Assembly (NCBI RefSeq): GCF_902463925.1
Contig: NZ_CABQHE010000002.1
Span: 87,484-151,483 of the forward strand
Length of the DNA: 64,000 nucleotides
Origin: an uncultured Streptococcus sp.
Lineage (GTDB): Bacteria > Bacillota > Bacilli > Lactobacillales > Streptococcaceae
Reading direction: 5' to 3'
The notes beneath the pieces were generated by a model. It worked only from the letters and a program-made list of their open reading frames with translations, was not told the origin of the DNA and did not search any database. Positions 16,982 to 23,995 of this stretch are shown here, in pieces. A program made the translations under genes and the position numbers. Numbering within the stretch: the stretch's first letter is position 1; every line of letters begins with the position of its first letter.

Positions 16982-17068
16982 AATGACATCATATTTTATA
17001 ATGAAGCTAGAATTCAACAAAAATTAAATGACCAGTCTCCTGTAGAGTACAGAAAACTGGTCGCATAA
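16982..17068 (+). mobile_element. IS3-family transposase C-terminal remnant
   Basis: Translation …FYNEARIQQKLNDQSPVEYRKLVA* matches the conserved extreme C-terminus of IS3/IS150-group OrfB. No upstream ORF. Confidence 0.5.
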
Positions 17069-17496
17069 GAGGTTTTTCTTGTCCCATTATTGGGGTGCAG
17101 TGCCAGTAGTGGGGCTCTTTTGTGTCTATTGAAAGATGATCTTCACTTACATTAAAGTATTAGATAAAGAATAAAATAAAAGAGATTAGACCAATTATTT
17201 TACTTTGGGATTGTTATTAGTTTAAATTTCAAGAGAATATTTTTACAAATGTTAGAGTCTTTGTAGTTATTTACATGAAAAGGTTTTAGATGTTTTCATG
17301 AAAGAAAAGTATGGTCGCTAAACAATTATTTATATTGATTAAAAATTAGAGAAAATACTTGCCTAAACATTAAAAAAAGGATATGATAGACCTCTGAAGA
17401 AGGTTAATAGATGCATAAAGTGCGTGTTTATCCGATAATATCTTTATTTTTGACGTGCCTTCGAGGTACAATGATTAACAAATAGGAAGTTTATGA

Positions 17497-20400
17497 ATGA
17501 AACAAGCAAATCATGTTGTTGAAAAAGTGACAAAATACGCTATTCGTAAATTGTCAGTTGGTGTTGGACCAGTTGCTATTGGAACATTCTTCATAGCAGG
17601 TGGTCTTTTCGTGTCTAAGCCAGTTTCGGCGGATCAGGTTACTACGGATCCATCGGTACATCTGGCTTATGTTACTGAAAATGAATTGACAGCCGAAGAG
17701 CAGAAGCAAGTGGTTCATGCTATTCCAAAGGCATATCAAAATGATGATACTTTTTATCTGGTCTATAAACGTAAGGGAGATAGTCAAGCTACTCTGCCTA
17801 AGACAGGCAGTTCTGACTGGGCGGCAACAGGGTTAGGACTGACGACAGCAACTTTGGCTGTGCTCCTATTTTCAAAAAAATATCGCAAAAAGAGTATTGG
17901 ATTGGTCTTGATTGGAGCAGCTGGGCAAAGCTTACTTATCCCTCTTGAGGTTCTTGCTTTGCAAAATAAAGAGTTGCAGGCTTATAATCAGAATCTAGCT
18001 GTCTCAGATGAGGCGGACCTAGCTAAAGGTGTTATTACCATTGATGGTTATGAGTATGTCGGTTATTTGCGTTACTCATCTAAGCCTGAGCTTGAACAAC
18101 CTTTGGAGAATACTTTGAAAGGACTTGAGCCATCAAGAGAAGATAGAAACACAGCAAGCCGGTATGAAATAGATAAAGAAATAAGTTGGGGAAAAGGAAC
18201 TCAGGAAGCCGGTCACGCAGGTGAATCCTTTGTTCAACCTGCCAATCTAGAGTACACTGACTCAATCAGTGCTAATGGCACGCAAGAATCAGGTCATGAA
18301 GGCGAATCCCTTGTTCAACCAGCAGTCCCAGAGAACACTGTCCCAGAGTACACTGGATCGATCAGTACCGATGGCACGCAAGAATCCGGTCACGAAGGCG
18401 AATCTCTAGTTCAACCAGCAACCCCAGAGTACACAGGTCCAATTAGTGATAACGAAACACAAGAATCCGGTCATGAAGGCGAATCTCTAGTTCAACCAGC
18501 AACACCAGAGTATACAGGTCCAATTAGTGCCAATGGTACGCAAGAATCCGGTCACGAAGGTGAGGCAGCTGTTCAACCTGCTAACCCAGACTATACAGGT
18601 AAACTGGAAGCCAAGGGTACACAGGAATCCGGTCACAAAGGTGAGGCAGCTGTTCAACCTGCTAACCCAGACTATACAGGCAAACTAGAAGCTAAGGGTA
18701 CACAAGAATCAGGTCATGAAGGTGAGGCTATTGTCCAAGCTGAGAATCCTGTTTATACCCCAGTTGTCGGAAGTATCACAGAGACTGAAACGCAAGCCAT
18801 TGATTATCCTATCGAAGTTATTACTGATGATAACAAATATGTGGATGAAGAAGTTGTTGATCAAGAGGGCCAAAAAGGTAGCCAAGAAATCCATAAAGTT
18901 TACCAAACCATTGATGGTGTTAAGATTGGTGAGCCGACTATTGTGTCAGGTAAGGTTATTGAGGTGCCACAACCTAGAAAAATCCGTCGTGGCAGCAAGC
19001 CTCTAGATGGGACAACGACTGAAGAGTCTATTGTAGAGCTTCCATTTAAAGAAATTGTCCAAGAAGATGATACACTTGAGAAAGGCGTTGTGCAGGTTGT
19101 CCAAGAAGGACAAAAAGGACAAAATAAAATTACCAAGATTTATAAGACCTTTAAGGGAAGTAAGACTGCTGAAGAACCAACTGTTACTGAAACAGTGCTA
19201 GTTCCTGCCCAAGATCGTATCGTTCGCAAAGGTACTAAGATATCTGAAAAACCAGTTCTTACACTGACACAGGTTGACAAGGATGACTTGAGTCGCAGTG
19301 CTAAACTTAGCTACAACTTGACTAATCCAGGTTCAGCAGCTATCACGACTATTAAGGCGGTCCTCAAGCAAGATGGACAGGTTATTCAAACGCTTGATAT
19401 TCCTAGCACGACCTTGACTGCTGACTTAACCAACTTAGCCTATTACAAGCCTTATACCCTTACGACAACCATGACCTTTGATCGTGGCAACGGTGAGGAG
19501 AGTCAGGTTTTGGCAGACCAAACTATCCAACTGGATCTCAAGAAGGTTGAGCTTAAAGATTTTACACGTACAGATTTGATCAAGTATGATAATCAAACAG
19601 AGGTGGACGAGACTCGCCTGACAGCTGTGCCTCAGGATCTGACGAATTACTACTTGAAGCTGACTTCTGCGGATCAGAAGACCACTTACTTGGCAGTGAA
19701 AGCCATCGAAGAAACAACAGTTGGTGGCAAGGCGGTTTATAAGGTAACTGCAGAAGCGGATAATTTGGTGCAACGTGATGCCCAAAACCATTTTGCGAAG
19801 ACTTATAGCTATTACATTGAGAAACCTCAGGCTAGCCAAGCCAATGTTTACTATGATTTTGCTGAGTTGGTCAATGCCATTCAGGCTAATCCATCAGGTG
19901 AGTTTAGACTTGGTCAAAGCATGAGTGCTCGCCACGTCGTTCCAAATGGCAAGTCATATATCACGACTGAGTTTACTGGTAAGTTGCTCAGTGATGGTGA
20001 CAAACGCTTTGCCATCTATGATTTAGAGCATCCATTGTTTAATGTCATCAATGGCGGAACGATCAAGAATATCAACTTTGAAAATGTAGACATCAATCGC
20101 CCTGATCAAAATCAAATCGCGACGGTTGGATTTAACCTTAAAAACAAGGGTCTGATTGAAGATGTTAAGGTGACTGGTTCAGTCACTGGTAACAATGACG
20201 TGGCAGGTATCGTCAATAAGATTGATGAAGATGGCAAGGTTGAGAATGTCGCCTTTATTGGTAAGATTAACTCTGTCGGTAATAACTCGACAGTTGGTGG
20301 GATTGCTGGTTCAAACTACATGGGATTCGTCAACAGAGCCTATGTGGATGCGACTATTACAGCTAATAATGCCAATGCAAGTATGTTGGTGCCATTTGTC

Positions 20401-23319: not shown

Positions 23320-23322
23320 TAG

Positions 23323-23995
23323 ATGAAAGAATTTCCTTTGGCGAAAATGAACTGCACCCTAAAAGTTAGACAGAAAAGATCTAACTTTTGGGGTGCTTTT
23401 ATTATGAAATTGACTTATGAAGATAAAATTCAAATATATAAATTGAGGAATCGTGGTTTTGTAGTGAACTATAAGAAGGTGCAACGTCTTATGAAAGTAC
23501 TTGGTTTAACCGCTAGAATTCGTCGTAAACGGAAATATTCTTCATATCAAGGAGAGGTTGGTATGAAAGCAGATAATCTCATTCAACGCCAGTTTGAAGC
23601 ATTAAAACCAATGGGAAAGTGCAACAAAGATGTGACCGAGTTTAATATTCCAAGTAGCTAACAGGGGTAGTTATATCAACACCGTATTCTCATCGCATTT
23701 TATAGTGGGTAAGGGGATTCAGCCTTCCATGTCCCGTAAAGGGAACAGCCCATACAACGGTATGATAGAGTCTTTCTTTGGCATTCTTAAGTCTGAGATG
23801 TTTTATGGTTATGATAAGACGTTTAAGTCGCTTAATCAATTGAAACCAGCTATTGTAGACTATTTTGATTATTACAACAACAAACGAATTGATGCAAAAC
23901 TAAAACTTTCTAGCCAAGGAACATATCACCAAACGTGGGAATCCCTATGCCAGAAAAATCTTGTTCAAGTGCATTCACAACATCGCTTCAGCTAG
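23323..23995 (+). mobile_element. IS3-family insertion sequence remnant (OrfA start fused to OrfB fragments; internally deleted and frameshifted)
   Basis: MKLTYEDKIQIYKLR (OrfA N-terminus) joined to NYKKVQRLMKVLGLTARIRRKRKY… (OrfB). Then SMSRKGNSPYNGMIESFFGILKSEMFYG…YYNNKRI (DDE transposase C-terminal region) with a frameshifted end. Confidence 0.8.

Follow-up and report, generated by a model that had tools for sequence, protein, structure and literature searches.

A ZmpB-type metalloprotease gene, probably resident, between insertion sequence scars in a Streptococcus vestibularis-clade locus

Introduction

The closest described relatives of the gene treated here are the zmpB genes of the Salivarius group of streptococci, in which zmpB is ubiquitous (Bek-Thomsen, Poulsen & Kilian 2012, mBio 3:e00303-12; PMC3518915). 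The same study found that the zmpB loci of S. vestibularis and S. salivarius lack synteny, that S. thermophilus has zmpB in fragments, at a locus corresponding to the S. vestibularis one, and that zmpB and zmpD form one cluster, the ZmpB of strain TIGR4 carrying the motif HETTH. IgA1 protease activity was absent from every tested strain of S. salivarius and S. vestibularis (PMC3518915). ZmpB-like paralogues are about 30% identical to ZmpA (PMC9637739), and later literature leaves the ZmpB substrate unresolved, with an association with collagen IV and no demonstrated direct cleavage (PMC9637739, PMC7939560). In this study we analysed a stretch of 64,000 nucleotides, hereafter the window, from an uncultured Streptococcus sp. 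(NCBI RefSeq assembly GCF_902463925.1, contig NZ_CABQHE010000002.1, positions 87,484 to 151,483, forward strand). It carries a giant M26 zinc metalloprotease gene, here called zmp, with remnants of insertion sequences (ISs) on both sides.

Our analysis indicates that zmp is very probably a resident, vertically inherited ZmpB orthologue of an S. vestibularis-clade genome, left between old IS-associated deletion scars. We regard the gene as resident and not imported because it is syntenic in IS-free relatives, its composition is native, and its synonymous divergence (dS) is the same as that of a neighbouring gene. A preliminary description of this DNA, made from the letters alone, had placed the gene on a mini-island bracketed by two IS3 remnants and suggested acquisition or rearrangement by ISs. 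Rearrangement agrees with the IS ends that we found at the breakpoints; acquisition does not agree with the syntenic zmp of IS-free relatives.

Results and Discussion

Gene order around zmp in related genomes

Sequence identity places the locus in the salivarius group, within the S. vestibularis clade, and not in the mitis group. The DNA from 24423 to 32333 had 94.0% identity to S. vestibularis ATCC 49124, compared with 88-89.5% to S. salivarius genomes. The exact SbcD, ABC2 and GshAB proteins of the window are deposited as S. vestibularis, the deposited SbcD starting at the second Met (402 aa) of the 408-aa open reading frame (ORF) in the window. The earlier framing of the gene by pneumococcus and mitis-group streptococci does not fit this backbone, 94% identical to ATCC 49124. 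The exact zmp product is RefSeq WP_308000820.1, labelled "ZmpA/ZmpB/ZmpC family metallo-endopeptidase"; its closest named homologues are S. salivarius proteins with the same label and about 94% identity, and it falls in the same 90% cluster as the S. salivarius K12 allele. Intact zmp loci identical or nearly identical to this one were also seen in independent metagenome assemblies; one allele there is longer by a single repeat unit (1967 aa).

A genome collection was scanned with SbcD, taking 10-kb flanks, the window genes were mapped onto the loci by tblastn, and the ABC2 orthologue was used from the other side. The genes sbcD and sbcC form the conserved right border of a variable surface-protein array and lie beside the array in all salivarius-group loci. 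The exporter genes ABC1 and ABC2 (12878..16481) form its conserved left border. In eight S. salivarius-type representative loci (L007-L011, L016, L017 and L019) zmp lies upstream of sbcD with its M26 part 92-96% identical, and it lies likewise upstream of sbcD in the complete genomes L026 and L027. No IS match was found between zmp and sbcD in the eight representative loci, nor around zmp in L026 and L027. The gap between zmp and sbcD in the eight loci is about 4.3 kb and is filled by the gene of a 1213-1230-aa YSIRK/MucBP/LPXTG adhesin. The order in L026 and L027 is a giant protein (4753 or 5067 aa), a Rib/RibLong LPXTG protein (2594 or 2281 aa), zmp and the MucBP protein, followed by an optional 1043-aa protein (L027), sbcD, sbcC and a glycosyltransferase. 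The IS-free S. salivarius genomes thus hold zmp in the same position and orientation to both borders, which speaks against its arrival as a mini-island: the supposed cargo is present in them, and the site holds more genes, not fewer, so that there is no empty site.

The left side of the array was seen on S. salivarius-type contigs (L028-L035), which run glgP ... gshAB, ABC1, ABC2, ABC-F (507 aa, minus strand), a 36-aa gene, a 362-aa gene and the giant protein gene. On contigs holding the whole gene, the giant products have 4079, 4753 and 5067 aa, and the 5067-aa product of L035 has the same length as that of the giant gene upstream of Rib and zmp in L027. In L028 (13487-21869), glycosyltransferase genes follow the 362-aa gene in place of the giant protein. 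Locus L015 (2943-10001) has an intact ABC-F gene and no trace of zmp; it keeps adhesin-gene fragments beside sbcD, and their C-terminal (LPXTG anchor) region matches the MucBP-type adhesin of L008. Judged by these gene orders, the surface-protein array between ABC-F and sbcD is hypervariable throughout the salivarius group, and the order in the window corresponds to the common order minus two blocks.

Breakpoints and the direction of change

Positions 16301-24700 were compared with the intact loci by blastn. Homology at ABC-F stops by about 16827-16860 (16827 against L015). Around zmp the homology runs to 23341-23347; it is then lost, and is found again from 24415-24426 on, about 130 nt ahead of sbcD. 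Breakpoints and IS ends coincide in the pairs 17105/17109, 23341-47/23348 and 24422/24423. Between them zmp keeps its native surroundings: 17109-17168 matches L027 9624-9683, about 81 nt past the stop of the Rib gene, the 5' homology to L026 and L027 is continuous from 17326, and 22-28 nt of native 3' flank after zmp are co-linear with S. salivarius. This co-linearity of both flanks is a further point against acquisition.

The preliminary description had correctly noticed a dead ABC ATPase upstream, which is the 3' remnant of an ABC-F-type gene on the minus strand. A Pfam ABC_tran match lies on a 61-aa ORF within it, and its frameshift was found by six-frame reading. The N-terminal ~415 codons of the 507-aa gene are missing. 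An intact 507-aa orthologue follows ABC2 in L015 and L028-L035, and the C-terminus of the L015 protein matches the dead fragment of the window.

Compared with a CP150201-type reference, the window would lack about 26 kb on the left side and 4.1-7.5 kb on the right side, both sizes being derived arithmetically. The direction of change is most likely loss in the lineage of the window, because ABC-F is truncated at the window junction and intact elsewhere, IS ends lie at the junctions, and L015 has a MucBP-type 3' end. The upstream IS3 remnant most likely marks the left deletion scar.

Some points weigh against this interpretation. The link from ABC-F to zmp in S. salivarius rests on the 5067-aa length match at two locus edges, and on the linkage of the ABC genes with sbcD in the window and L015, since the 10-kb flanks are too short for the giant and Rib genes together. 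The vestibularis ancestor need not have shared the present gene content of S. salivarius, and the deletion sizes are estimates. The window contains no remnant of the MucBP gene, so that its loss, as opposed to its never having been present, is a parsimony argument. Finally, the zmp product is below the curated NCBIfam cut-off for ZmpB (1842 < 3000 bits), a model tuned to pneumococcal ZmpB.

Remnants of insertion sequences

The coordinates of the remnants and of the other features are given in Table 1. The upstream remnant holds an ORF (16943-17068) with an rve_2 match and with a match to positions 348-369 of an IS3 transposase profile of 369 positions. It ends 429 nt ahead of the zmp start codon, as the preliminary description had said (about 430 nt). 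At the DNA level, the remnant 16887-17105 is 67-71% identical to IS3 transposase genes annotated on plasmids of staphylococci and enterococci.

Table 1. Features of the zmp locus (window positions; blocks of the IS3 scar are given with positions of the reference element)
Feature	Position	Strand	Description
ABC1	12878-14623	+	heterodimeric ABC exporter gene (NCBIfam)
ABC2	14613-16481	+	heterodimeric ABC exporter gene (NCBIfam)
Dead ABC-F-type ATPase	16575..16860	-	3' remnant, ~94 codons, one frameshift, stop codon at 16575
Upstream IS3-family remnant (right end)	16887..17105	+	OrfB C-terminal tail and terminal inverted repeat ...GGGGTGCAGTGCCA ending at 17105
Native 5' region of zmp, retained	17106..17496	+	blastn to intact S. 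salivarius-type loci
zmp, intact M26 zinc metalloprotease gene, ZmpB-type	17497..23319	+	1940-aa uninterrupted ORF, 5.8 kb
YSIRK-type signal peptide	17497..17631	+	aa 1-45; Pfam PF04650 and TIGR01168
N-terminal sorting module	17794..17958	+	LPKTG, first transmembrane segment (TM1), charged stretch, TM2
Repeat array	18196..18771	+	about seven 27-aa units (GTQESGHEGESLVQPATPEYTGPISAN-like), aa 234-425
Two G5 domains	18763..19239	+	aa ~423-581; Pfam PF07501, two stretches, best 428-501; bounds of the second read from the sequence
Peptidase_M26_N	19432..20178	+	aa 646-894; PF05342, 284.9 bits, full-length profile match
Peptidase_M26_C catalytic region	21097..23313	+	aa 1201-1939; PF07580, 684.6 bits, full-length profile match
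Downstream IS3-family scar	23348..24422	+	HTH_21, rve_2 and IS3 profile matches; map against intact 1445-nt element
IS3 block 1	23348-23450		reference positions 1-103 (left inverted repeat, orfA start)
IS3 deletion 1			reference positions ~104-749 deleted
IS3 block 2	23441-23664		reference positions 750-973
IS3 deletion 2			reference positions ~974-1138 deleted
IS3 block 3	23677-23905		reference positions 1139-1366
Nested IS110-family 3' fragment	23905..24347	+	443 nt, at IS3 position ~1365
IS3 block 4	24345-24426		reference positions 1364-1445 (right inverted repeat)
sbcD	24554-25762	+	NCBIfam SbcD
sbcC	25759-28938	+	NCBIfam SbcC

The downstream scar begins 29 nt past the zmp stop and takes the place of the MucBP adhesin gene. 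It was mapped onto an intact 1445-nt element of the S. salivarius plasmid CP015284 (L036). Its IS3 character is seen in the terminal inverted repeats (IRs), the orfA and orfB fragments and the co-linearity with the reference, with the DDE core largely deleted, so we call these pieces remnants. The nested fragment is 90.3% identical to a stretch of the S. salivarius plasmid CP018188 (L037) that comprises the 3' end of a gene annotated as IS110 family transposase and about 180 nt beyond it; Pfam and NCBIfam gave no match on the 68-aa ORF of this fragment. There was no target-site duplication around the downstream scar and no intact transposase in either flank, all transposase ORFs being fragments. 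By their sequence, the IS3 and IS110 pieces of the window are non-autonomous wrecks. In CP015284 (L036 386-1860) the intact IS3 sits between the halves of a perfect palindrome, AAAACACCCTATTTT ... AAAATAGGGTGTTTT; the loop of a terminator-like hairpin seems to have been its insertion site.

A shredded IS3 element downstream had been reported 3 nt after the stop codon of zmp. The element is real; the 3-nt spacing belongs to a spurious ORF only, and the IS proper starts at 23348. The segment had also been ended at 23995, whereas the scar reaches about 24422 and includes the overlooked IS110 fragment. The bracketing by two IS3 remnants stands as an observation, but the two show no DNA similarity besides an IS150-like terminal IR motif. 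They are of different IS3 lineages and are more plausibly scars of deletion than the arms of a mobile island.

Composition and divergence of zmp

Of a genomic island one would expect a composition that departs from the host backbone. The GC content of zmp was 0.423 and its GC content at third codon positions (GC3) 0.387, against means of 0.424 +/- 0.025 and 0.400 +/- 0.056 for 26 other genes of the window. Low GC (0.33-0.36) was confined to IS and intergenic DNA. The tetranucleotide correlation of zmp with the rest of the window was 0.837, compared with 0.795 for sbcC, 0.780 for glgP, 0.812 for gshAB and 0.867 for the glycosyltransferase. An apparent tetranucleotide anomaly of zmp (lowest of 59 windows) was dropped after this control against other long single genes (0.780-0.867).

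Over the C-terminal 1366 codons, the dS of zmp to named S. salivarius genomes was 0.29-0.36, and up to 0.67 for the more distantly related L007, L010 and L017. The dN/dS ratio (dN, nonsynonymous divergence) over these codons was 0.05-0.08, also against another vestibularis-type allele. For sbcD, dS was 0.27-0.33 and dN/dS about 0.09. The dS values of the two genes are about equal, and therefore zmp diverged in step with its neighbour. These values point to strong purifying selection on zmp, with no sign of foreign origin or decay.

The alleles of the window and of the vestibularis-type contig L038 (4001-9904) were 99-100% identical from the signal peptide through M26_N, except for 91-96% in the pre-repeat and repeat region, and 96-97% identical over the C-terminal ~1000 aa (dS 0.27), as distant there as S. 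salivarius alleles. This pattern suggests a mosaic from intragenic recombination.

Proposed history and alternative explanations

We propose the following course of events. The zmp gene of the salivarius-group ancestor would have stood within an array of giant cell-wall protein genes reaching from the ABC-exporter/ABC-F block to sbcDC. In the vestibularis lineage, zmp would have received IS3-family elements on both sides, upstream at a distance of about 390 nt and downstream at about 29 nt. A deletion of ~26 kb on the left most likely took the N-terminal four-fifths of ABC-F, the 362-aa gene, the gene of a ~5,000-aa protein and the Rib gene (~2,300-2,600 aa), and a loss of 4-7.5 kb on the right most likely took the MucBP adhesin gene, plus the 1,043-aa gene of some references. 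The ISs would later have decayed, one of them gaining and then partly losing an IS110 element, while zmp and its own 5' region would have been spared and kept under strong purifying selection.

An alternative is that the short arrangement of the window is ancestral, that S. salivarius gained the giant, Rib and MucBP genes, and that the IS fragments are incidental. Gene gain clearly occurs in this hypervariable array, as the differing lengths of the giant products, the glycosyltransferase variant of L028 and the optional 1043-aa gene of L027 indicate. Yet ABC-F is truncated right at the upstream IS junction and intact (507 aa) in L015 and L028-L035, and such a truncation signals loss; each homology breakpoint falls at an IS end; and L015, without zmp, still has a MucBP-type 3' end beside sbcD. 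We consider this alternative improbable.

It is less probable again that zmp is becoming a functionally irrelevant pseudogene under relaxed selection, as in S. thermophilus, where zmpB is fragmented at the S. vestibularis-equivalent locus (PMC3518915). The allele of the window is the shortest among its 120 best homologues, and an IS insertion 390 nt upstream could disturb its regulation. The intact 5.8-kb ORF with all domains and catalytic residues weighs against a pseudogene, as do the dN/dS of 0.05-0.08 over 1366 codons, the retained native 5' region, and the identical or near-identical intact alleles in independent metagenome assemblies.

The least probable explanation is that two IS3 copies brought zmp between the ABC genes and sbcD as a composite transposon or mini-island: zmp does have IS3-family ends facing it from either side, in direct orientation (right IR 17105, left IR 23348), the flanks are low in GC (0.33-0.36) and some salivarius-group loci such as L015 lack zmp at the site, but the flanks do not hold the same IS twice, no functional transposase was found in them and no target-site duplication around the downstream scar, and the composition of zmp does not deviate, with low GC only in IS and intergenic DNA and with a dS equal to that of sbcD. 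Resident inheritance with loss of neighbouring genes is thus the explanation that we prefer. The check for presence or absence in related genomes, which the preliminary description had itself proposed, gave zmp in synteny without IS flanks in the eight loci and in L026 and L027.

The ZmpB-type protease

The preliminary description of the product as a giant M26 metalloprotease with inverted anchor, repeats, G5 domains and a HETTH...E site was confirmed in all parts by Pfam, NCBIfam, Tandem Repeats Finder (TRF) and alignment. The YSIRK domain lies at aa 9-33 (Pfam), with YAIRKLSVG at aa 14-22 and ...KPVSA at aa 41-45, and the signal peptide is predicted to end after KPVSA, at aa 45. The sorting module has LPKTG at aa 100-104, TM1 at 108-125, SKKYRKKS at 126-133 and TM2 at 134-154, and the TIGR01167 LPXTG_anchor signature covers aa 99-131 (NCBIfam). 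The product has in this way the inverted (N-terminal) anchor of M26 proteins, a signal peptide followed by LPXTG and hydrophobic segments. A matching N-terminal topology is documented for IgA1P and ZmpB (PMC3518915 Fig. 2 legend; PMC7939560).

TRF found arrays of 81 nt x4.3 and 96 nt x1.9 at 18249-18728. With 1940 aa, the allele of the window is shorter than all others among the 120 best homologues, which have 1967-2132 aa; under a strict pattern it scores 5 repeat units and these homologues carry 7-14. The homologue lengths differ in steps of about 27 aa, which indicates that repeat gain and loss are frequent in the stalk region.

Both Peptidase_M26 domains exceed the Pfam gathering scores (27.7 bits for Peptidase_M26_N and 22 bits for Peptidase_M26_C). 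The zinc motif H1602-E1603-T-T-H1606 is encoded at nt 22300-22314, and the third ligand E1626 (+20) at nt 22372-22374. As the preliminary description had expected, this HEXXH region aligns with M26 peptidases, and HETTH...E aligns with HEMTH...E of solved IgA1 proteases. All four catalytic residues (H1604, E1605, H1608 and E1628 of the pneumococcal enzyme; PMC7695701) are conserved.

Four NCBIfam exception-level models were compared, each with a cut-off of 3000 bits. They ranked the product as ZmpB (NF046019, 1842.4 bits), ZmpD (NF046024, 1475.6), ZmpC (NF046021, 851.9) and ZmpA (NF046017, 611.5), and it stayed under all four cut-offs, which are tuned to pneumococcal proteins. Homologues were searched with the C-terminal 1200 aa among 1.84 billion 50%-identity representatives. 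A neighbour-joining tree of the catalytic 1,200 aa was made with 100 bootstraps, with P0318 (passes the ZmpB cut-off) and P0315 (passes the ZmpD cut-off) as anchors. The product paired with the S. salivarius K12 allele (bootstrap 100). This pair lay inside an all-HETTH clade that holds the ZmpD anchor P0315 (bootstrap 100), and that clade was nested in a cluster holding the ZmpB anchor P0318 (bootstrap 100), with a HEMTH/HEMVH clade apart. The tree holds no ZmpA or ZmpC anchor that passes a cut-off, the candidates among the 50% representatives having been traced to Gemella, Enterococcus, Aerococcaceae or unnamed sequences and not to pneumococcus, so the separation from ZmpA and ZmpC is given by profile scores, motifs and comparison with PDB structures.

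Taken together, model ranking and tree assign the product to the ZmpB/ZmpD cluster and set it apart from IgA1 protease and ZmpC, in agreement with the earlier designation as ZmpB-type. Three other identities were considered and rejected. ZmpA does not fit with 611.5 bits (< 3000) and a position outside the HEMTH/HEMVH clade; ZmpC does not fit with 851.9 bits (< 3000) and the motif HETTH, not HEMVH/HEMTH; and ZmpD does not fit with 1475.6 bits (< 3000) and neighbours that are ABC-F/IS debris and sbcD, with no adjacent iga. Three things make IgA1 an unlikely substrate: the cluster in which the product falls, its HETTH motif, and the activity screens of the species group, which were negative. The label "IgA1-protease" of the preliminary description is not supported, given the scores (ZmpA 612 against ZmpB 1842 bits), the tree and the absence of IgA1 activity in the species group (PMC3518915).

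By analogy with the family (PMC3518915, PMC7695701, PMC7939560), the YSIRK signal peptide would export the protein, and sortase would process LPKTG and tether the N-terminal end to the wall. The 27-aa repeats and G5 domains would form a stalk from which the M26 body of ~1,300 residues projects outward. A thermolysin-like zinc site between the middle and C-terminal domains would use H1602, H1606 and E1626 as ligands and E1603 as general base, and the substrate would be a host or surface protein other than IgA1.

Age of the scars and the gal-lac genes

The vestibularis-type contig L038, which has no Ns, shares the upstream scar and an IS3 with the internal deletion 104-748, and is without the nested IS110. 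Next to the right end of the IS3, L038 has a 67-nt IS110 piece, and beyond that galR-galK (L038 10642-12990), the galK region being 99.6% identical to ATCC 49124. The ATCC 49124 scaffold L013 (1-9873) has galKTEM-lacSZ, Ns, and, at the junction before sbcD that the window also has, a 163-nt right-end remnant of the same IS3. A reading of this scaffold in which lacZ directly abuts sbcD with no zmp was withdrawn, as a run of Ns (a scaffold gap) lies between lacZ and sbcD.

These comparisons suggest three states: state A of S. salivarius, with a complete adhesin array free of ISs; state B of the window, with scars on both sides and zmp beside sbcD; and state C of type-strain-like genomes, with the same scars, the galR-galKTEM-lacSZ operon apparently between zmp and sbcD, and a second IS3 right-end remnant ahead of sbcD, its right junction resting on a scaffold join. 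We take the scars to be old and common to the vestibularis clade, and the downstream IS3 to be a hotspot of rearrangement, which would account for the published lack of synteny between zmpB loci. The position of gal-lac next to the IS3 scar may bear on the origin of the gal-lac context in the S. vestibularis/S. thermophilus branch.

A more speculative proposal, which we find somewhat doubtful, is that the downstream IS3 scar acted as a recombination joint in the S. vestibularis/S. thermophilus branch, at which the adhesin genes were stripped first and the lactose/galactose operon was then placed beside zmpB, the window keeping the earlier state. If true, this joint would explain why synteny is missing between the zmpB loci of S. 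vestibularis and S. salivarius. It might also fit the zmpB fragments of S. thermophilus, placed at the S. vestibularis-equivalent locus (PMC3518915), and the consistent sparing of zmpB amid the absence of all neighbouring LPXTG adhesin genes would mark it as the single surface factor that the commensal cannot lose.

Other observations

A single -35/-10-like site lies at 17359-17387, as a consensus match only. Promoter and terminator scans were at chance level, and no Rfam family was found in 16400-24700.

L023 (1-8798), a contig of a metagenome-assembled genome with coverage 1.2, has zmp and sbcD broken into several frames, by pseudogenisation or by low-coverage sequencing error.

Other M26 genes occur near sbcD in some records. 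L014 (3-8277) has two tandem HEMTH-type genes, one cut by the locus edge, and L020 (3135-8957) has one of 1941 aa; they belong to an iga/zmpC-like clade, about 28% identical to the protein of the window, in a different neighbourhood that shares sbcDC. An ancient zmp-sbcD linkage based on these genes was rejected, as they are HEMTH-type paralogues separated from sbcD by a gpmA-like gene.

The sbcD-sbcC region (24532-28947) has 85-89% DNA identity (SbcD protein 93-94%) to L014, L018, L020, L021 and L022. These five records are labelled S. oralis JPIIBV3, S. parasanguinis BgEED34, S. symci, S. lactarius and one further Streptococcaceae genome; their homology to the window does not extend beyond sbcDC, and their flanks differ. 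It may be that sbcDC travels between oral streptococci as a cassette; otherwise the records carry wrong labels.

Further downstream, secY2 (accessory Sec translocase; 31446-32474, with equivalents in L002 and L003) encodes only 342 aa, which match profile positions 4-294 of 406. It is followed by genes for an acetyltransferase (Mac/Hexapep), a MarR regulator and an MFS (major facilitator superfamily) transporter, and not by asp or secA2 genes. It may be a decayed accessory-Sec locus, fitting the absence of large surface proteins nearby.

Significance

Earlier publications already cover the gene, its family and its presence in the Salivarius group, and RefSeq contains the exact protein. What this study adds is modest: a mechanistic explanation of the differing zmpB neighbourhoods of S. 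vestibularis and S. salivarius, in which adhesin genes are missing and IS scars lie at the breakpoints. Besides this account, the juxtaposition of gal-lac with the same IS3 scar in some strains is mildly new. The locus also gives a hint of a natural experiment, ZmpB being kept under strong purifying selection while the surrounding surface proteins seem dispensable. This retention supports the 2012 proposal of an important host-association role of ZmpB in commensals (PMC3518915). The case is also a caution that IS debris near a large surface-protein gene need not signal horizontal acquisition.

Comparison with known systems

Among the IS elements, the IS3 of CP015284 (IS150-like ends) is matched by the downstream scar at both ends and in three internal blocks at 85-88%, with about 810 nt missing in the window. 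The IS110 of CP018188 is retained only as its 443-nt 3' part, the portion 5' of those 443 nt being missing.

Pneumococcal ZmpB (SP_0664, NF046019) shares the domain order, the N-terminal LPXTG/TM topology and the supercluster of the tree with the zmp product, and its NCBIfam model scores best. The ZmpB of TIGR4 has the same HETTH motif, whereas the pneumococcal ZmpB representative P0318 (HELTH type) has only 42-44% identity. Pneumococcal ZmpB differs in its chromosomal locus, and the host of the window is a commensal. ZmpD (NF046024) shares HETTH, and the nearest non-salivarius clade in the tree holds P0315, with 46-48% identity; ZmpD is defined largely by its position beside iga (PMC3518915), and the immediate annotated neighbours of zmp are not M26 genes.

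The IgA1 protease/ZmpA structures (PDB 6XJA, 6XJB and 7JGJ; G. haemolysans 7UVK) are homologous over about 1,260 residues (E 1e-133). The zinc-site spacing in sequence is identical (HExxH, E at +20), but IgA1 protease has HEMTH where the zmp product has HETTH. An architecture of N-terminal, middle and C-terminal domains with a gated active site is probably common to both.

The Salivarius-group ZmpB (PMC3518915) is the same gene, with 91.5-96.7% identity of the M26 part across all loci compared, and the allele of the window has the shortest repeat array seen, with about 7 units. The text of PMC3518915 offers no explanation for the missing synteny, which we trace here to absent adhesin neighbours with IS scars at the breakpoints and, in some strains, to gal-lac lying alongside. 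The locus resembles cases of IS-mediated adjacent deletion and of a reductively evolving surface-protein set in the S. vestibularis/S. thermophilus branch, with adhesin genes missing and with IS ends at the breakpoints. S. thermophilus went further, with zmpB itself fragmented, whereas the window lacks the neighbours of the protease gene but keeps the gene itself, under purifying selection.

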